Sequence record: CP031559.1
Source of the DNA: a plasmid
Length of the DNA stretch: 8,975 nucleotides
Direction: 5' to 3' (one strand)
Shown here: piece after piece, positions 1,855-8,975 of the stretch
Layout of the letters: each line of letters starts with the position of its first letter
Numbering within the stretch: position 1 is the stretch's first letter
Made by a program: the position numbers and the translations under genes
Notes under the pieces: model-generated
What the model was told of the DNA's origin: nothing
The model's input: only the letters and a program-made list of their open reading frames with translations
The model's database searches: none

Positions 1855-2215
1855 ACAAATTTCTTCCTAAAATCGCCTAGAATGAATTTTCAACTCTAAT
1901 TCAACCTAATCATCAGTTTTTGAATGAAACGATAAAATAAGGCTATTTTTAGCTCATTATTGGGGTATTTTGTTTTTAGTTGAAAGCTAACTTCAAAATT
2001 CAAAACAACTCCATTTCCCTTTTAGTTGCTCACCGATAGCCAATCTTACTAGTTTAGGATCTAAAAGCGCATCTAACTAGGGCTATCAATCTAACCCCCC
2101 TACAAAACCGTCTAGCGAAGCGTAAGCGAGCATTCAAGCGGTTTTGCACCGAGCATGTAAATCAAAAATCCCCTAAAACTAAAATTCCAAAATATGTAGC
2201 GCGTCATGCGCGTTG

Positions 2216-2276
2216 TTTTTTTACATGTTTTAAACAGCATGCTGTTTTTACATGTTTTACCATGCGCGCGCATGTG
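2216..2276. repeat. Direct repeat GTTTTTACATGTTTTA (x2) flanking AGCATGCT, followed by the perfect 14-bp GC-rich palindrome CATGCGCGCGCATG
   Basis: Seen directly at 2216-2260 (repeats) and 2263-2276 (palindrome). Lies in a non-coding stretch upstream of the iterons. Probable replication/partition control repeats. Confidence 0.4.
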
Positions 2277-2349
2277 AGGGATTTGGGGTTGCAACACCCT
2301 AAATAACGAAGCTGTATGGTTTCTCATTTTTGGGGTTAAAATGAATAAA

Positions 2350-2447
2350 ACAGAACTTCTTACGAGTGATAACAGAACTTCTTACGAGTGATAACAGAAC
2401 TTCTTACGAGTGATAACAGAACTTCTTACGAGTGATAACAGAACTTA
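2350..2447 (+). repeat. Iterons: 4 complete + 1 partial tandem copies of the 22-bp unit ACAGAACTTCTTACGAGTGATA, followed by an AT-rich (DUE-like) stretch; replication origin
   Basis: Perfect 22-bp periodicity starting at 2351, 2373, 2395, 2417 and 2439 (partial). No spacers, so not CRISPR. Located ~330 bp upstream of repA, as for iteron-regulated theta replicons. Confidence 0.9.
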
Positions 2448-2610
2448 TTTATTTTAAAGTTATGATTATTAACAATTTTTAGCTATAATAACAACCTAAG
2501 GCGGTATAACATGGTTGCTAATCCTAGTGTTAACAAATTTGGAGAAATTAGCTTTAAAAGCTAGTGGGTTGGGAGTTTGTAGTGGGTGGCACTCTGTTAG
2601 GAGGCACACC

Positions 2611-2670
2611 ATGAAAGCATTTTTGATAGTAGTGATTTTAGTGGTAATCTTAACACAGCCACTATATTAA
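2611..2670 (+). CDS. 19-codon micro-ORF encoding MKAFLIVVILVVILTQPLY with AGGAGG SD 6 nt upstream; Ibs-like hydrophobic peptide or rep leader peptide
   Basis: ATG at 2611, TAA at 2668-2670, AGGAGG at 2599-2604. The product is an almost purely hydrophobic putative single TM helix ending in Tyr. Not in the ORF track because it is too short. Confidence 0.4.
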   Translation: MKAFLIVVILVVILTQPLY

Positions 2671-2687
2671 AACCTTAGCGTTTTAAT

Positions 2688-2722
2688 AACCCTTATAAGT
2701 CCGGCAAGACTTCTTAAGGGTT
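2688..2722 (+). other. Stem-loop AACCCTTA...(19 nt)...TAAGGGTT downstream of the micro-ORF; possible terminator/structure in the repA leader
   Basis: 8-bp inverted repeat seen directly, followed by TTT. Weak U-tract, so a terminator function is uncertain. Confidence 0.25.
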
Positions 2723-2781
2723 TCACTCCTGTTATTATATCGTCTTTTGAAAAATAAGCATTAAAAGGCGGTTAAATTCCC

Positions 2782-4401
2782 ATGAATACGAATTTTGATC
2801 AACTTAGAAAACAAGAATTGGAATTACGAAAATTATTAGAAGAATTAGATACATTCCCACAAACCCCACAAATTAAACTGCAAAAACAAAAAATACAAAC
2901 TTACATAGACAAGATAACACCAAGTATTTTGAGCGGTTTTAATCAAAAATTCAAAGAAATTACAGAAAATTCACATGAGTTTAAAAAAGAAAAACCCACA
3001 CCCAACAAAGCACCACAAACCACCCCCACACCATGCAAGGATTTAGTGGTTAGCACCCACAAAAATAACGCCTATACCACCTACCACAATAACGCTAATA
3101 AGGTTAATCTAGGGAAATTGAGCGAAAGGGAAGCCAATCTTTTATTCGCTATTTTTCAAAAACTCAAAGATCAAGGGAATACCCTCATTCGTTTTGAACC
3201 GCAAGATTTGAAACAAATGATCATGGTCAAATCCAACCTGACCAACAGACAATTATTGCAAATCCTCAAAAACTTGCTTGACAACATAGGCGGTGCTAAT
3301 TTTTGGATCATTAGAGAGCATGTTGAAAATGGCGAAATCTATGAAGATCACACTAGCTACATGCTTTTCAAACAATTTGAAATCCGTATCCATAAGCCAA
3401 CCCAAACTATAGAATACTTAGATGTCCAACTCAATGATAGCTATCAATACTTGCTCAACAATCTAGGAATGGGCGGTCAATACACTTCTTTCAAACTTTT
3501 AGAATTCCAAAGAGTGAGAGGCAAATACGCTAAAACGCTCTATCGCTTGCTCAAGCAATACAAAAGCACAGGGATTTTGAGCGTGGAATGGGGTCAATTC
3601 AGGGAGCTTTTAGACATTCCAAAAGATTACAAAATGGAAAACATCGATCAAAAAGTCTTAACTCCAAGCCTCAAAGAACTCAGAAAAATCTATCCTTTTG
3701 AACACTTGAGCTACAAAAAAGAACGCCGAAGCCACGACAAGCGTAAGGTAACCCACATTGATTTTTATTTTGAGCAATTGCCACAGGGTGAAACCAAGCA
3801 ACAAAAACAAGCCAATAAGCAACGCGCTAAAAGGGATATTAAGCTTGTGGCATGGGATATTCACAACCAAATCGCTAAAAGAAACGCCAAAGCCACTATG
3901 GAAGCTAGGTTGCTTGAACTCAAAACCTTGATTGGCTATCAGTTCAGGCACAACAATGGGACTATTTTACAGGTTGATGACGCTACTTTTGAAAAGAATC
4001 AAATGTTTTTGCATGTTTCAACCAACAAAAAAAATTCTCAAAAATTGCTTGTATCAAGCAAGGCATTCGCTTTAGAACTTCTGTTTGTTAGTGGATACAG
4101 CCTGAAAAAAGACAGCTTGATAGAAGAAATTGATCCCCCTAAAATCCACCCTATCACCAACGAACCAATTAAGGAATTTGCAGAATACATCGGCAAAACG
4201 ATCCACATCACTAATTTCAATGTGGACAAATGCCCTGAGGGGATCAACAACTACCTGAAAATCACTAGGATTGTGAAACTGAACGACAATCGGATCTGTA
4301 TCTCAATCCAAGATGTGGACAAGCCTGACAAACTATTGAAGCCTTTCATCGCTAAAGATGAAAAACATTTGAAGAATTGGTTCAAGAAACACTACCACTG
4401 A
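2782..4401 (+). CDS. repA: Plasmid replication initiator RepA (539 aa), iteron-binding theta-replication type as on H. pylori cryptic plasmids
   Basis: Largest plus-strand ORF. It directly follows the iteron array and AT-rich region. Antisense ORFs inside it (3658..3951, 4038..4250) are compositional artefacts. Confidence 0.75.
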   Translation: MNTNFDQLRKQELELRKLLEELDTFPQTPQIKLQKQKIQTYIDKITPSILSGFNQKFKEITENSHEFKKEKPTPNKAPQTTPTPCKDLVVSTHKNNAYTTYHNNANKVNLGKLSEREANLLFAIFQKLKDQGNTLIRFEPQDLKQMIMVKSNLTNRQLLQILKNLLDNIGGANFWIIREHVENGEIYEDHTSYMLFKQFEIRIHKPTQTIEYLDVQLNDSYQYLLNNLGMGGQYTSFKLLEFQRVRGKYAKTLYRLLKQYKSTGILSVEWGQFRELLDIPKDYKMENIDQKVLTPSLKELRKIYPFEHLSYKKERRSHDKRKVTHIDFYFEQLPQGETKQQKQANKQRAKRDIKLVAWDIHNQIAKRNAKATMEARLLELKTLIGYQFRHNNGTILQVDDATFEKNQMFLHVSTNKKNSQKLLVSSKAFALELLFVSGYSLKKDSLIEEIDPPKIHPITNEPIKEFAEYIGKTIHITNFNVDKCPEGINNYLKITRIVKLNDNRICISIQDVDKPDKLLKPFIAKDEKHLKNWFKKHYH

Positions 4402-4434: not shown

Positions 4435-5154
4435 ATGCCAACTAATGATTTATCTAAACTCATAGAAAAACTAAATCATGAAAAAAAGAATGCTATTAAA
4501 AATGGCATTTACCACTTAATCCAAATTAAATTTTCTTATAATTCTAATCGCATTGAGGGAAGCAGTTTGACCTACGAACAAACCGCTCATATTTTTGATA
4601 AATCCGCTCTTATAACTGAAAAAAACGAAAATATTAGACTTGATGATATTTTTGAAACCATCAATCATTTTGAATGCGTGAATTACTTGCTTGAAAGCTA
4701 TAAAGAACCTTTGAGTTTAGAATACTTTAAGACTTTACACAAAATCTTAAAAAATAATTGCTCTGATGAAGTTATTGGTGATTTTAAAAAACACCCTAAT
4801 TTTGTAGGTGATAGCGCCACAACAAGACCCCAATTAGTTGGAAGCGAATTAACAAATCTTTTGCAACGCTACCACAGCCTAACTGCAACAAGTTTGGAAA
4901 ACATCATAGATTTTCATGTGGCTTTTGAAAAGATACACCCTTTTAGCGATGGCAATGGTAGAGTGGGGCGATTAGTCATGTTTAAAGAGTGTTTGAAAAA
5001 CAATATCATACCCTTTATCATAGAAAACGAACACAAAGCTTTTTACTATAGGGGTATTAGAGAATATCACAAGACAAAAGGTTATTTGAAAGATACCATT
5101 TTGCAAAGTCAAGATAATTTCAATGAAATGGTTAGCTATTTCTTTTCTAAGTGA
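4435..5154 (+). CDS. fic: Fic/Doc-family protein (239 aa), class II (intramolecular inhibitory helix), putative AMPylating toxin/effector
   Basis: Canonical Fic motif HPFSDGNGRVGR (HPFx[D/E]GNGRxxR) in the C-terminal half. N-terminal SNRIEG matches the inhibitory [S/T]xxxE[G/N] motif. AAGGA SD before the ATG, 33 nt after the repA stop. Confidence 0.9.
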   Translation: MPTNDLSKLIEKLNHEKKNAIKNGIYHLIQIKFSYNSNRIEGSSLTYEQTAHIFDKSALITEKNENIRLDDIFETINHFECVNYLLESYKEPLSLEYFKTLHKILKNNCSDEVIGDFKKHPNFVGDSATTRPQLVGSELTNLLQRYHSLTATSLENIIDFHVAFEKIHPFSDGNGRVGRLVMFKECLKNNIIPFIIENEHKAFYYRGIREYHKTKGYLKDTILQSQDNFNEMVSYFFSK

Positions 5155-5281: not shown

Positions 5282-6445
5282 TTAAATTTTTACTTTGCAT
5301 AGGAATACACATGTCAAAATAAGCGTGACTATAAAATGTACAGCGATAACTATAGTCGGAGAAAAAATAAGTAGCTCCAAACTTGTTATGCCTAAAATAA
5401 TAACAGAAATTACTCGTGAGACACTAGATTTTAGAGAAGTAAGGGATGAGATTTTCTCTTTGCTGACATAAAGAGAAAATTGATAACTTACAATAAAATC
5501 TATGTATGTAAACAAGGCAACACTGATCATATAGGCACTAACAAATAGCAATATGTCCATACTTAGCAATAGTGCACTAGCAAGTCCAGTTAAAAAGATC
5601 ATGGTAATAGTCATATATCGGTTATACGAGTTGGCGTTACAAAAATGAACGAGAATTCCTATAATTTGAAATGATATATAAAATATAAACAAGTAGTTTT
5701 CTGTAATCTGTTTGTCTAGAAAGTAGGCTTGCCATAATTGAAAATGACTTTGAAAAAAGATTTGCAAAATTAAACTGAGTAGAATTAGATTTTTAAGAAG
5801 TGTTTTATCTTTTAGCTCTCTAAAACTTTCCCTTACATGTTGTTTTAATATCTGCAACTGTCGCTTTTTTTCTAGTTTATGAGAAGAATCGTCTTTAAAA
5901 AATAAAATAATGACCGAGATACACAGTAATGTAAACAAGACTGATATGTAGTACATGGAGACACCATATTTTAAATACAAGAATGAGCCTGAGCAACTTC
6001 CAATTATCAACCCTATAAAACTGATTTGGCGACTTTTAGCAATGAATGGTGATAAATCTTCTTTTTGGTCTTTGATGTTAGTAATGAGAGTGGCATCAAT
6101 GGTACCTGAGTCTAGAGCGTTTGATAACCCATAAATGCTCCATGCTAGAACCATACTAACAAAGCTGTCTAACCATAGAACACAAAAAAAACTGCATACT
6201 AAAACTAATTTTGAAACAATAAAAAGCATCTTTCTATTTATTAAATCTGCTAACACACCACTCGGATATTCTGAGAGTAAAACACACAAACTGTAGGTGG
6301 CTTGTATGATCATAATTTGACTTAATGATAATCCTTTATTGAGCAATAATGGTGTTAAAATGGCGTGTGGCAAAGACTGAGCAATGACAAGTAGCATCGT
6401 TGCACAGTAATAAGAGAGTATATTTACTTTTAGTGCTTTGTTCAT
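5282..6445 (-). CDS. mccC: MFS-family efflux transporter, MccC-like (387 aa); export/self-immunity pump for microcin C-like compound
   Basis: Highly hydrophobic with ~12 predicted TM segments. Immediately downstream of (11 nt after) the MccB-like gene on the same strand. Confidence 0.75.
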   Translation of the reverse strand: MNKALKVNILSYYCATMLLVIAQSLPHAILTPLLLNKGLSLSQIMIIQATYSLCVLLSEYPSGVLADLINRKMLFIVSKLVLVCSFFCVLWLDSFVSMVLAWSIYGLSNALDSGTIDATLITNIKDQKEDLSPFIAKSRQISFIGLIIGSCSGSFLYLKYGVSMYYISVLFTLLCISVIILFFKDDSSHKLEKKRQLQILKQHVRESFRELKDKTLLKNLILLSLILQIFFQSHFQLWQAYFLDKQITENYLFIFYISFQIIGILVHFCNANSYNRYMTITMIFLTGLASALLLSMDILLFVSAYMISVALFTYIDFIVSYQFSLYVSKEKISSLTSLKSSVSRVISVIILGITSLELLIFSPTIVIAVHFIVTLILTCVFLCKVKI

Positions 6446-6456
6446 ATTAAGAAACT

Positions 6457-7509
6457 CTATAAATTATGATTAGAGCAAAATACACATTTATAATCTACAC
6501 TAGATGGCAAAGTGTATGTTTTGAAAGTTTTGTTGTCAACTCCGAATCGGCAGTTCAGGGATTTTATGGAGTTAAAATCATCAGACATAAATTGTATAAT
6601 ATCTGAAATTGCTAGGCTAGAAGCGATAGAGTTATTTAAAAAACTTGATGGTGCCTGCATGCGGTCATTTATAAGACATATGTCCAGATTTTTATCACTG
6701 TCTTTTTTATCATCTAGAGCAAAACTATTATGGCAAAAAGGACAACAAGACAATGAAGGGATATAAAAAGGACCGATAAGAGATATGTCATTTAAATAGC
6801 CAATATTTAAAAATGGAATGAGACACTTACAAAAAAATCTCGTTGCCAATTGTACTGTGTTTGGATTATCTCCAGAAACAATTCCAAACAAATTTTCTTT
6901 TTTATGTTTAGAAAAAATTTCTTCAAGATTGTATTCACTGGCAAAATCATCTACTATCTCAATATTGATGTCAAATCTACTAGAAAGAGCCTGCTTTATG
7001 GTAGATGTTTTATATTGTGAAATGTAATTCTTGTCAAACAAGAACTGGCGGTTAAGATTGCTGGGATCAACGGTATCCTTATCTAACAATATTAGTTTTT
7101 TTGGATAAAAACTTGCTAGAGCATAGCTTACAAAATTTCCAATACCCCCACAACCAATAATGATGAAAATAGTTCTTTTAAAATTATTTATTGTTAATTC
7201 TGGTTTATTTGACATTAAATCGATAAACAGGTGGTTCTTAAAGTTTTGTTTGTCATTTGGATTTAGTATGAATGAGGTAATAAGTTTATTAGCAACTAGC
7301 TTATCAAAAATATCATGTTCTATTTTGTTAGCTTCCATAAAACTTTTTATCTCATTCATTCTTTTCTTCATTCTCAGAAAAACCAATAATCTCAGTGATT
7401 TTTCAAATTCATTATGATCAACGCAATACTGATATGTTCCAAGACCAATAATATTTTCTGTATCTGTTTGACCAACACATGCACTAAAACTAGTTTGATA
7501 ACACTGCAT
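6457..7509 (-). CDS. mccB: MccB-like ThiF/E1-type peptide C-terminal adenylyltransferase (350 aa)
   Basis: Rossmann motif IIIGCGGIGNF, followed by LLDKDTVDPSNLNRQ (the ThiF/MoeB/E1 signature). Two CxxC pairs (CCPFC..., ...CVFC) as in the MccB Zn site. Length is identical to E. coli MccB (350 aa). Preceded by a 7-codon Asn-terminal peptide gene. Confidence 0.85.
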   Translation of the reverse strand: MQCYQTSFSACVGQTDTENIIGLGTYQYCVDHNEFEKSLRLLVFLRMKKRMNEIKSFMEANKIEHDIFDKLVANKLITSFILNPNDKQNFKNHLFIDLMSNKPELTINNFKRTIFIIIGCGGIGNFVSYALASFYPKKLILLDKDTVDPSNLNRQFLFDKNYISQYKTSTIKQALSSRFDINIEIVDDFASEYNLEEIFSKHKKENLFGIVSGDNPNTVQLATRFFCKCLIPFLNIGYLNDISLIGPFYIPSLSCCPFCHNSFALDDKKDSDKNLDICLINDRMQAPSSFLNNSIASSLAISDIIQFMSDDFNSIKSLNCRFGVDNKTFKTYTLPSSVDYKCVFCSNHNL

Positions 7510-7562
7510 AAATAACCTTTCCTGAATAACTAACTCTACTCCGATAAAACTTTGAGCAATTA

Positions 7563-7579
7563 CACTCTAAAATAGAGTG
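7563..7579 (-). terminator. Hairpin CACTCTA-TTT-TAGAGTG in the mccA-mccB intergenic region; candidate partial terminator/attenuator
   Basis: 7-bp perfect stem with 3-nt loop seen directly. The downstream U-tract is weak (TAATTGC...). Resembles the read-through terminator between mccA and mccB in E. coli. Confidence 0.3.
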
Positions 7580-7593
7580 CAAAATTTTTCAAT

Positions 7594-7617
7594 TTAATTA
7601 CGGTATGACAATTTCAT
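7594..7617 (-). CDS. mccA: Microcin C-like precursor heptapeptide MccA (MKLSYRN-stop)
   Basis: Minus strand reads ATAAAGGAGTAAGCC ATG AAA TTG TCA TAC CGT AAT TAA. This gives an AAGGAG SD with 6-nt spacing, a 7-codon ORF ending in Asn, and placement 85 nt upstream of mccB. That is the defining architecture of mcc operons (E. coli MccA = MRTGNAN). Confidence 0.75.
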   Translation of the reverse strand: MKLSYRN

Positions 7618-7788
7618 GGCTTACTCCTTTATAACTCTAAAAATTACGGAAATAATAACAATAATTATGATTTTTTTATTTACTGATTACATATTCGTAA
7701 TAATATTTTTTGTAGTTTGAGTATATTTTGCACGATAAGGTGGCACTAAAGTAATTTTTACAGATATAAAAAAAGAATTTTTTAACCC
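7618..7788 (-). promoter_or_regulatory. Promoter region of the mcc operon (between mobA stop and mccA); several AT-rich -10-like hexamers, e.g. TATACT after TGCAAAA
   Basis: Non-coding, 170 nt, extremely AT-rich. Exact -10/-35 not resolvable by eye. Confidence 0.3.
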
Positions 7789-8975
7789 TTACCGCCCGTA
7801 CCCACGAATATAATTTCTCTCATTTTCTATTTTTTGATTGTGTTCTCTAATCTTTTTATCCAGCTGTGTTGTTCTTGTATAAAACTCTCTTGTTTCTTGT
7901 TCCATTCGCTTTGAAAGTCGCTCATCTGCTCTTTGAAAGAAGTTTCTAATTCGTTCTTTTGCGTTTCTGTAGATGTCTTTAATTGCGTTAATTGCGTCTC
8001 GTGTTCTTGCATAAAGGTTGTGTAGGATTGTTCTAGCTCTTGTTTTAGAGTTGTTTCTAAAATCTCTAATTGTGTTTTCAATTCTTTGTATTGAGCTTGT
8101 GAAATCTCTTGCTCTTTGATTTGAGCGTTCTGTAATTCTTGTTGTAAAATCCGCTCGCACATTGTCTGTAAATTGTTGTTGAGCGAGATTTCTTTCTGTT
8201 CTAATGTTTGCATTAATTGATTCAATTCGGCTCTCTCTGCTCTCTCTAAAGCTTGAAGTTTGGCTAATAATGTGTTGTGCGTTTGGGATAGCGTTTCGTA
8301 GCTCTCTTTCAAGTTCAAGGTTTCTGTCTCTAATCTCTCGTAATTCTTGCTTAGCCTTTAAAATTCTTCTGTAACTTTCTCTAGCTTGATCAATAGCTCG
8401 TTTTTGTCGTTCTCTAAACTCTCTATTTCGCTGTTCTTTTCTTTGAGCAAGATCTCTTTCTCGTTCTGTAAGTTCTCTACTTCGCTGATTAAAGCGCTCT
8501 GTAGCTTGTTTAAGTATTATTCCTGCATTTTTTCCCCTTATTTCTTGGTCGGTATTTGATCGTAAATTCTCTGTAGATTGGCGTTGTTTAGTTGGTCTAT
8601 TTCTCGTTTTAACTGAAAGACTTCTTTCTGTGAAAGCTCTAATTCCTTGTTTTTGCTGGGTAGAATGATTAGAAAGTATGCCCCCACTAATATTACCCCC
8701 ATAATAACTAGCCCCATAATGAAAGTTAGGGGCATTAGTAAGGATTTCTTGGCTAGGTTCTTGTGGATTTATTTCTCTAGCTCTTGTAAATCCTCTTGTA
8801 TAGTTTCCTTGTATTTCTTGTTGGTTCTCTCCAGCTCTAGGTAGCTGTTCTTTAGGTTCTCGTGGTTCTTTTGAATTAAATTCGTGTAGCTGTTTATAGT
8901 ATTGCTGTTTGTATTCAATGTGTCTGTGTAGCTTGTTTTCAAGCTCTCGCAAAAGTTCTGCATGGTTGTTGTTAG
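7789..8975 (-). CDS. mobA: 3' part of relaxase MobA (low-complexity R/E/N/Q-rich C-terminal domain); open to the window end and in frame with the partial mobA at 1..796 if circular
   Basis: Frame open from 8975 to TAA at 7789-7791 with no stop. The annotated 'M' at 8952 is a TTG. Codon phase from 8973 downward matches the phase that continues from position 1 (codon = comp(1),comp(8975),comp(8974) = ACT). Composition matches the end of the N-terminal fragment (...ARQRENQRERSNSYT). Confidence 0.6.
   Translation of the reverse strand, partial: NNNHAELLRELENKLHRHIEYKQQYYKQLHEFNSKEPREPKEQLPRAGENQQEIQGNYTRGFTRAREINPQEPSQEILTNAPNFHYGASYYGGNISGGILSNHSTQQKQGIRAFTERSLSVKTRNRPTKQRQSTENLRSNTDQEIRGKNAGIILKQATERFNQRSRELTERERDLAQRKEQRNREFRERQKRAIDQARESYRRILKAKQELREIRDRNLELERELRNAIPNAQHIISQTSSFRESRESRIESINANIRTERNLAQQQFTDNVRADFTTRITERSNQRARDFTSSIQRIENTIRDFRNNSKTRARTILHNLYARTRDAINAIKDIYRNAKERIRNFFQRADERLSKRMEQETREFYTRTTQLDKKIREHNQKIENERNYIRGYGR
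7827..8318 (-). CDS. mobB: MobB/MbeB-like coiled-coil protein nested in an alternative frame of mobA (start uncertain; the annotated start is TTG)
   Basis: Second open minus-strand frame inside mobA (the third frame is closed). Product is E/Q/K/L-rich coiled coil. ColE1-type mob regions encode mbeB/mbeD inside mbeA in another frame. Confidence 0.4.
   Translation of the reverse strand: MNLKESYETLSQTHNTLLAKLQALERAERAELNQLMQTLEQKEISLNNNLQTMCERILQQELQNAQIKEQEISQAQYKELKTQLEILETTLKQELEQSYTTFMQEHETQLTQLKTSTETQKNELETSFKEQMSDFQSEWNKKQESFIQEQHSWIKRLENTIKK
8538..8735 (-). CDS. mobD: MobD/MbeD-like small membrane protein (65 aa: N-terminal TM helix + coiled coil) nested in alternative frame of mobA
   Basis: Genuine ATG start. 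N-terminus MPLTFIMGLVIMGVILVGAYFLIIL is a clear TM helix followed by charged coiled coil. Same alternative frame as the mobB-like ORF. Confidence 0.45.
   Translation of the reverse strand: MPLTFIMGLVIMGVILVGAYFLIILPSKNKELELSQKEVFQLKREIDQLNNANLQRIYDQIPTKK
8769..8963 (-). CDS. Additional 64-aa ORF in the same alternative frame of mobA (coiled-coil-like); possibly an N-terminal segment of a mobB/D-type protein or non-functional
   Basis: ATG at 8963. The stop is immediately followed, in frame, by the mobD-like ORF. Supported only by frame openness and protein-like composition. Confidence 0.2.
   Translation of the reverse strand: MQNFCESLKTSYTDTLNTNSNTINSYTNLIQKNHENLKNSYLELERTNKKYKETIQEDLQELEK

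Follow-up and report, generated by a model that had tools for sequence, protein, structure and literature searches.

The window analysed here is a stretch of 8,975 nt from a plasmid (sequence record CP031559.1), which represents an approx. 9-kb theta plasmid of Helicobacter pylori, of the pHPAG1/pHel4/pHPP12 kind. The region of interest shows similarity to more than 100 Helicobacter plasmids and gave no other matches. Our analyses focused on a short module lying between the origin repeats and the replication gene, which is composed of a small open reading frame (ORF) and the structured RNA predicted to contain it. Directly upstream of the module are the iterons, the RepA-binding origin repeats (22-bp direct repeats, four full copies and one partial; 2349-2445). 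The module itself, read on the + strand, contains: (i) P1, the predicted promoter of the small-ORF RNA, with a -10 box TATAAT (2484-2489) that is kept in all five allele groups described below, and with a predicted start near 2496-2498; (ii) a Shine-Dalgarno (SD) sequence AGGAGG (2599-2604), separated by a 6-nt spacer from the start codon; and (iii) the small ORF (2611-2670), which is separated from the TATAAT box by a 121-nt stretch, starts with ATG at 2611, ends with TAA at 2668-2670 and encodes a 19-amino-acid peptide, MKAFLIVVILVVILTQPLY, 74% of whose residues are hydrophobic. The repA gene (2782-4401, + strand), encoding a Rep_3/RepB-type replication initiator of 539 amino acids that is distantly related to proteins of Campylobacter and many Firmicutes, begins 112 nt 3' of the small ORF, measured from its stop at 2670 to the repA ATG at 2782; in the other alleles this gap is 91-102 nt.

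An earlier note, made from the window alone, had singled out this ORF as a strong-SD coding mini-gene resembling the Ibs toxins of Escherichia coli in length and style. Its description of the SD sequence, of the reading frame and of the hydrophobic 19-amino-acid product proved accurate. The AGGAGG at 2599-2604 is also the sole one of the window on either strand (chance expectation, 1.8). For one sequence taken in isolation, the case for the ORF beyond chance is weak: an ORF of 15-30 amino acids with at least 70% hydrophobic residues and a preceding SD core occurs in 8% of dinucleotide-shuffled windows, and the window itself contains five further hydrophobic mini-ORFs, all of them without an SD sequence.

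The locus was compared across 36 related replicons of H. pylori, Helicobacter acinonychis and Helicobacter cetorum, taken from PLSDB and GTDB genomes and including pHPM180, pHel4, pHPO100, pHP51, pHP666, both pHPAG1 replicons, pHPP12, pHPG27, the PMSS1 plasmid, pHac1 of H. acinonychis and pHCW of H. cetorum. These loci comprise 23 distinct DNA versions and encode 18 distinct peptides of 19 or 22 amino acids, plus one with a C-terminal extension to 26. Start and frame of the small ORF are intact in all 36, and the conservation of frame across related plasmids, whose failure the note had named as a ground for abandoning its proposal, is thus borne out. The sole change of frame is a late 1-nt insertion in pHac1 (L009, 1136-1216), two codons before the stop, by which the terminal Tyr is replaced and a 26-amino-acid peptide (…TQPLILKKTLAF) results; among the other 35 loci the only length change within the ORF is an in-frame insertion of 9 nt. 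The SD motif GTTAGGAGG is invariant in 35 of 36 loci, the exception being G27, which has AGGAGA. Variable sites at codon positions 1, 2 and 3 number 17, 6 and 18, respectively (binomial P = 0.006), T occupies 302 of 417 second codon positions, and amino acid changes mostly replace one hydrophobic residue by another. Judged by this comparison, the small ORF is a genuine conserved protein-coding mini-gene. Moreover, because of the codon-position pattern, the T-rich second positions and the hydrophobic-for-hydrophobic replacements, it is the hydrophobic character of the peptide that is under selection, beyond the mere maintenance of an open frame.

The loci fall into five allele groups: A, represented by the window (MKAFLIVVILVVILTQPLY); B, pHPO100-like, with a 22-amino-acid peptide (MKFIIVVIVSLVVVVLLTQPLH) that contains the in-frame 9-nt insertion; C, L007-like (MKVFFVLVLVLVILAQLLY), several members of which have a GTG start; D, pHPM180-like (MKLLFMLVLVLVILAPLLH); and E, of H. 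cetorum (MRLIVIAIVLVVILTLPLY). A GTG start was found in two alleles. In four loci of group C (L021, L022, L164 and L165) the GTG lies within AATGTGA or AACGTGA, and in the AATGTGA versions an ATG two bases upstream runs straight into a TGA stop codon. A TTG-initiated, in-frame extension of the ORF to 51 amino acids (2515-2670) was also considered; it was rejected, because the leaders of the alleles differ in length by 1, 2, 8 and 11 nt, which breaks the upstream frame.

The small ORF is annotated in none of the records compared. The peptide strings are absent from the searchable literature, outside which an earlier passing mention in older plasmid papers is possible, and the peptide variants of at least 20 amino acids are absent from a collection of 15 billion proteins. 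Scans of four peptide variants against Pfam and NCBIfam, with E values up to 10, returned no relevant match.

The most informative feature of the locus, which the earlier note did not contain, is a covariation-supported fold of approx. 250 nt that sequesters both the SD sequence and the AUG and closes the 5' end of the RNA onto its 3' region. The predicted structured RNA containing the small ORF extends from about 2496 to 2750 on the + strand. For 2496-2752 of this strand the minimum free energy (MFE) is -79.5 kcal/mol (z = -4.3; none of 200 shuffles was as stable), compared with -59.6 kcal/mol (z = -3.2) for the minus strand of the same stretch. A consensus was calculated with RNAalifold from 22 sequences of groups A, B and E, with the window as the first row; this alignment was anchored at the conserved CGGTAT, since MAFFT misaligned the 5' ends of allele B. 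The consensus has ten helices, with 98.6% of cells paired. Seven of its pairs show compensatory double changes, against 0-2 in controls with the partners slid by 1-3 columns, and the slid controls reach a covariation score of at most 0.067, compared with 0.228 for the consensus. A separate alignment of 12 C and D sequences gave the same architecture built from different sequences (99.3% paired, seven double changes). Since many of the pairs are G-U, the fold belongs to the RNA of the + strand; covariation thus shows a conserved predicted fold that is specific to this strand.

All helices named below are on the + strand. The RNA would be closed by H1, in which 10 pairs join the 5' end (2499-2508) to the 3' region (2736-2745). 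This helix contains one A-U to G-C double change, while its one-sided changes all retain pairing via G-U, and it is 92-99% paired, compared with 29-56% after sliding. Its counterpart in groups C and D is the pairing of GUG(U/C) with (A/G)CAC. A duplex-energy test of the 5'-3' pairing against shuffles was weakly significant (P = 0.03-0.7), and covariation counting was more informative. The leader segment 2510-2525 pairs with the translation initiation region: H2 joins CAUGG (2510-2514) to CCAUG (2609-2613), which includes the start codon, and H4 joins UCCU (2522-2525) to AGGA of the SD sequence (2599-2602). Two hairpins of the leader also belong to the approx. 250-nt RNA. Further downstream, H7 (2624-2632/2726-2734) connects codons 5-8 with the 3' region and contains four compensatory double changes, H8 (2639-2645/2658-2664) is a hairpin inside the ORF, and H9/H10 form a post-ORF hairpin, ACCCTTATAAGTC...GACTTCTTAAGGGT (2689-2721), whose structure is conserved, with compensatory changes, and whose sequence is not. 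The 3' strands of H7 (2726-2734) and H1 (2736-2745) lie next to each other and are followed by TTTTG. The U-G pairs of the post-ORF hairpin in the H. cetorum, C and D alleles again favour the + strand.

The MFE structures pair the SD sequence and the AUG with the leader segment at +8 to +32 in 10 of 11 representatives, with compensatory changes; in the C and D alleles, the change of the start codon from ATG to GTG is matched in the leader by a change from CAUA to CACA. Opening of the SD-AUG region is predicted to cost 9-17.5 kcal/mol, which in the C and D alleles is far higher than with shuffled leaders (z = 3.3-7). When the 3' strand alone is removed from the predicted fold, the SD sequence is still sequestered. 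The ribosome-binding site of repA lies outside the conserved fold.

The most conserved motif of the leader, AAATTTGGAGAAATTAGCT (2535-2553, + strand), is nearly invariant in all five alleles, and more so than the ORF. In both consensus folds the motif, as AAUUUGGAGNAAUUAGC, is unpaired over part of its length; its first part and its GGAG part are predicted to be single-stranded. A ribosome standby site, a cleavage site and a binding site are candidate roles for this motif. Partners for the invariant motif AAUUUGGAG were sought elsewhere in the window, with matches at chance level only. Scans of metagenome and viral contigs with the leader-motif pattern retrieved 126 loci, all of them attributable to chance and none with the ORF module, and an Rfam scan of the window produced a single chance match to a snoRNA.

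A second candidate promoter lies between the small ORF and repA. The perfect minus-strand TATAAT at 2739-2734 (ATTATA on the + strand), from which the earlier note had proposed that an antisense RNA is transcribed, is indeed present. No other -10-like hexamer of the minus strand is shared by all five allele groups; the box reads TATGAT in B and TATAAT in the four others. As a candidate antisense promoter it would start transcription near 2727, and in every allele it is situated 51-70 nt past the small-ORF stop. The same box can be read on the + strand (2730-2738) as TG-n-TATTAT, a candidate repA-proximal promoter, P2. Here the hexamer reads AATTAT in E, GATCAT in B and TATTAT in the three other groups; in every allele the minus-strand reading is closer to the consensus. 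In the window the box is part of a perfect 10-nt inverted repeat (2484-2493/2730-2739; TATAATAACA/TGTTATTATA), in which the core of P1 is copied exactly, facing inwards, 236 nt downstream; TGnTATTAT is read on the opposite strand of each copy. A pair of promoters, either convergent or divergent, is possible. In groups C and D the box is invariant in all 12 sequences and lies outside the RNA helices, and is therefore a signal at the DNA level; in groups A, B and E it overlaps the 3' strand of H1. The box at 2730-2739 could fire leftward (antisense, approx. 2727), rightward (repA mRNA, approx. 2745) or in both directions.

No terminator between the small ORF and repA emerged when 2200-3000 was scanned for terminators and promoters, and P1 transcripts may therefore continue into repA. 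The same scan missed both -10 boxes, because no -35 element is present. Allele comparison revealed no conserved minus-strand -10 box within the leader or the ORF, and no conserved minus-strand terminator was seen upstream of the ORF. The earlier note had placed the end of the antisense RNA at a palindrome near 2545. The palindrome exists, a few bases away (approx. 2549-2564; TAGCTTTAAAAGCTA on the + strand), and its role as an antisense terminator was not supported: the hairpin is favoured on the + strand, and its G-U pairs in one allele would be mismatches on the minus strand.

If the box at 2733-2739 were simply the repA promoter, the peptide could be a non-toxic small membrane protein without a dedicated antisense RNA, acting as a modulator of a membrane protein or as a membrane anchor of the nascent transcript or of the plasmid, with the fold keeping its synthesis low. 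The selection seen at the peptide level accords with this idea, as do the lack of evidence for toxicity, the plausible TGnTATTAT reading and the + strand specificity of the fold. However, it is toxin mRNAs such as those of hok and AapA1 (PMC5416894), rather than the mRNAs of ordinary small membrane proteins, that typically combine a perfect SD sequence with elaborate multi-helix occlusion and pairing of the 5' with the 3' end, and the minus-strand hexamer is nearer the consensus throughout. We regard this alternative as improbable.

The module is widely distributed and behaves as an exchangeable unit. Similarity to it was detected in two overlapping sets of 77 and 55 Helicobacter plasmid records. 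The mini-gene is present in plasmids of the laboratory strains G27, P12, B8/B128 and PMSS1/SS1 and in the classical plasmids pHPM180, pHel4, pHPO100, pHP51 and pHP666, and the module is retained in minimal plasmids of 2.5-3.5 kb. The Rep proteins of pHPO100 and H. cetorum share only 22 and 34% identity, respectively, with RepA of the window and are accompanied by differing iterons; the module, from promoter to stop codon, is approx. 73% identical. Conversely, locus L007 has iterons identical to those of the window and a RepA with 91% identity, yet carries a C-type cassette. Identity between the two is approx. 100% up to 2490, 20-80% over 2495-2790 and again approx. 100% from about 2795, so that the divergent cassette spans the stretch between the transcription start and the repA ribosome-binding site, the latter included. 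A C-type cassette also occurs in plasmids that are 96% identical overall to the window. This pattern suggests that the leader cassettes are exchangeable alleles on one backbone.

The window-L007 pair also bears on the idea that the RNA or DNA structure is the sole functional element and the ORF is incidental, the structure being either a stabilising 5' domain of the repA mRNA or, at the 2689-2721 inverted repeat, an operator for RepA. The fold is strongly conserved, and the 3' arm of the post-ORF hairpin (2709-2721, ACTTCTTAAGGGT) resembles the iteron core ACTTCTTACGAGT at 11 of 13 positions. The 17/6/18 pattern, the in-frame indel, the SD sequence at optimal spacing and the preserved start and frame argue for translation instead, and L007 combines the iterons of the window and a closely similar RepA with a completely different hairpin. 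The operator was rejected, as the hairpin does not co-vary with the iterons or with RepA specificity; its likeness to the iteron is probably due to chance or specific to allele A, because the C-type cassette on the same iterons has no such match. A purely structural role is, in our view, highly improbable.

Several H. pylori plasmids contain two complete replicons (iterons, leader cassette and repA) whose cassettes are of different types: A and D in pHPAG1 (L160, 3541-3830), A and C in pHPB14 (L014), and B and C in PMSS1/SS1 (L012). Strain Hpfe010 harbors two plasmids, with cassettes of types C and B. This sample of two-replicon plasmids is too small to demonstrate avoidance of identical cassette types.

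Outside these plasmids, a scan of GTDB genomes with a RepA profile found only H. pylori-type replicons and a Rep relative in Helicobacter labacensis (42% identity), which lacks an upstream module. One 1874-bp contig assigned to 'Streptomyces sulfonofaciens' (L023, NZ_BNCD01000063.1) encodes an H. pylori-type RepA (67% identity) preceded by a D-type leader with the small ORF; its presence in a Streptomyces assembly is almost certainly contamination. The Rep_3 plasmid pTIW94 of Campylobacter jejuni (L167, 225-580) has six 22-bp iterons, a consensus promoter (TTGACA-17-TACAAT) and, before rep, a structured leader of 190 nt with two GC-rich hairpins. This leader has no hydrophobic ORF and carries instead a 26-amino-acid basic ORF, MKRHSKRFVRLYLKFRFFKLKVEVFF. 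Judging by pTIW94, the long leader may have preceded the peptide in evolution.

The position of the cassette raises the question of replication control. P1 could be the promoter of repA, the 290-nt stretch its 5' untranslated leader, and the small ORF an upstream ORF that remodels this leader; a countertranscript from 2739-2734 would then bind the region of the post-ORF hairpin, lower repA expression by cleavage or attenuation, and so set copy number and incompatibility. The fixed position and orientation of the module between iterons and repA across three Rep clusters agree with such a role, as do the lack of a detected terminator before repA, an allelic cassette that begins at the transcription start and includes the repA ribosome-binding site, and a hairpin whose shape is kept while the alleles differ in the sequences of its loop and stem. 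A cassette of this extent is reminiscent of the mosaic copy-control regions of IncF plasmids. The different cassette types of two-replicon and co-resident plasmids, and the equivalent order of iterons, promoter and structured leader before rep in C. jejuni pTIW94, point in the same direction. On the other hand, the distance of 91-112 nt between the ORF stop and the start of repA rules out direct translational coupling of the kind known from R1 tap and IncB repY. The earlier note's second suggestion, a leader peptide for copy-number control of repA, finds no support as a coupled leader peptide, given this distance and the selection for hydrophobicity, which would be unexpected if the act of translation alone mattered. 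The repA ribosome-binding site is not part of the conserved fold, the C. jejuni leader does without a hydrophobic ORF, and the control of iteron plasmids normally works through handcuffing and the autoregulation of Rep, without antisense RNA. We consider a replication-control leader of this kind the main alternative, possible although rather unlikely.

The known systems most similar to the module include several type I toxin-antitoxin loci. The peptide resembles the Ibs toxins of the Ibs/Sib systems of E. coli in its length of 19 amino acids, in the basic residue that follows Met, in a core of Ile, Leu and Val and in ending with Tyr or His (IbsD and IbsE of E. coli K-12, both of 19 amino acids, are MMKLVIILIVLLLVSFAAY and MMKLVIILVVLLLLSFPTY, respectively). 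A further similarity is the candidate antisense promoter 3' of the ORF, as sibD starts 40 nt past the ibsD stop. Homology to Ibs was not detected: ungapped identity to IbsD or IbsE is 4-7 of 19 residues, a level reached by 4-62% of composition-preserving shuffles (P = 0.04-0.6), in a test that has little power at 19 residues. In contrast to Ibs/Sib, the Helicobacter ORF is preceded by a structured leader of 115 nt, in an RNA predicted to close 5' to 3'; it lies on a plasmid, enclosed by the iterons and repA, and is accompanied only by a candidate -10 box for an antisense RNA. Apparent Ibs homologs, AapC and AapD (Sharma et al.), have been noted on the H. pylori chromosome by Fozo et al. (PMC2887945, PMC13584709).

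The hok/Sok system of plasmid R1 and AapA1/IsoA1 of the H. pylori chromosome share with the module a small hydrophobic peptide encoded in a long folded mRNA, whose 5' end pairs with its 3' end and whose SD sequence is sequestered. The hok system is a plasmid addiction module. In the case of AapA1, 5'-3' pairing and SD sequestration render the primary transcript inert (PMC5416894), and according to Arnion et al. no aapA/IsoA system is found on Helicobacter plasmids (PMC5416894). The differences are the length of the peptide (19-22 amino acids, compared with 30 for AapA and 50-52 for hok), the position of the only conserved antisense-promoter candidate on the 3' side and not over the 5' leader, and, with respect to hok, the lack of an overlapping mok-like frame.

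The par locus of enterococcal plasmid pAD1, encoding Fst, belongs to the basic replicon region of that plasmid. In this and other gram-positive type I systems the toxin mRNA and the antitoxin are convergent, with overlapping 3' ends (PMC8594479), a layout which the candidate antisense RNA of the Helicobacter module would share. Unlike par, the module occurs in another host lineage, direct repeats for a 5' interaction were not found in it, and a bidirectional terminator common to both RNAs, with a clear U-tract in every allele, is lacking. Finally, the CopA/tap/repA region of R1 and the RNAI/repY/repZ region of IncB/IncI-alpha plasmids resemble the module in having a short leader ORF before rep, a countertranscript (here a candidate), structure-dependent control of translation, and a mosaic or allelic control region. 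They differ in that the Helicobacter leader ORF ends 112 nt before repA, with no coupling, the candidate antisense RNA is encoded downstream of the leader ORF and not over its ribosome-binding site, selection acts on the sequence of the peptide, and the replicon is of the iteron (Rep_3) type.

Taking these comparisons together, we tentatively favour, with confidence a little short of even, a module for addiction or competition that resembles type I toxins, lies within the replicon between iterons and repA and is present as exchangeable allelic cassettes. The selected hydrophobic peptide, the buried perfect SD sequence, the 5'-3' closed multi-helix fold, the plasmid location and the allelic diversification are all pointers to a hok/AapA1 design. 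We infer the mechanism from the conserved sequence features as follows. The TATAAT promoter beside the iterons would transcribe an RNA of approx. 250 nt carrying the 19-codon ORF, whose product would be a tiny membrane-type peptide with a single helix. Pairing of the leader (2510-2525) with the SD sequence and the AUG would hold off translation, codons 5-8 would pair with 2726-2734, and pairing of the 5' end (2499-2508) with 2736-2745 would close the RNA. The peptide would be made only once the RNA had been opened or processed. An antisense RNA initiated at the minus-strand TATAAT (2739-2734), overlapping the 3' part of the mRNA, would counter the toxin. Given the lack of a detected terminator before repA, this RNA may also act as the repA leader and influence repA expression. 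The start and end points of transcription, the antisense RNA, the toxicity of the peptide and the link to plasmid maintenance are likewise what we infer.

Several points weigh against this interpretation. The antisense RNA, the toxicity and the translation are predictions from the sequence, and no toxin family was matched in Pfam or NCBIfam. In the allele of the window, occlusion of the SD sequence is not significantly above that by a shuffled leader (z = 0.6). The antisense -10 box overlaps the + strand TGnTATTAT, which is possibly simply the repA promoter, and in groups A, B and E much of the box is also accounted for by the 3' strand of H1. The C, D and H. cetorum alleles have no evident well-folded antitoxin RNA, because the G-U pairs of the post-ORF hairpin would be mismatches in an antisense RNA. 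Moreover, the known gram-negative antitoxins Sok and IsoA cover the 5' part of their mRNAs, and no conserved minus-strand promoter exists there in the Helicobacter module. The invariable location of the module exactly between iterons and repA, in one orientation, also fits a replication-control element, and so does a cassette that runs through the repA ribosome-binding site.

The toxin and replication-control functions might also be combined. In such an addictive replicon, one short countertranscript from 2739-2734 would both silence the toxin mRNA and tune repA, and the A-E cassettes would be joint addiction and incompatibility alleles, deciding which H. pylori plasmids, or which of two replicons on a single plasmid, coexist and which displace each other. 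We put this forward as a speculative and unlikely extension.

The rest of the window (5282-8952 on the minus strand, and 4435-5154) resembles related plasmids annotated with mobilisation genes and a Fic protein. The same matches also carry annotations of a ThiF-family adenylyltransferase and an MFS transporter, which form a microcin-like pair.

By comparative analysis, the core of nearly all Helicobacter theta replicons contains an unannotated small-ORF module with a structured RNA. Should this module act in toxicity or addiction, no earlier type I system would be known from Helicobacter plasmids; its toxin would be nested inside the replicon core, and it could help to explain the persistence of these small cryptic plasmids. 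If it is a copy-control leader, it would add an unusual RNA-based layer to an iteron plasmid. The module may also be relevant to those Helicobacter shuttle vectors that are built on native plasmid replicons.

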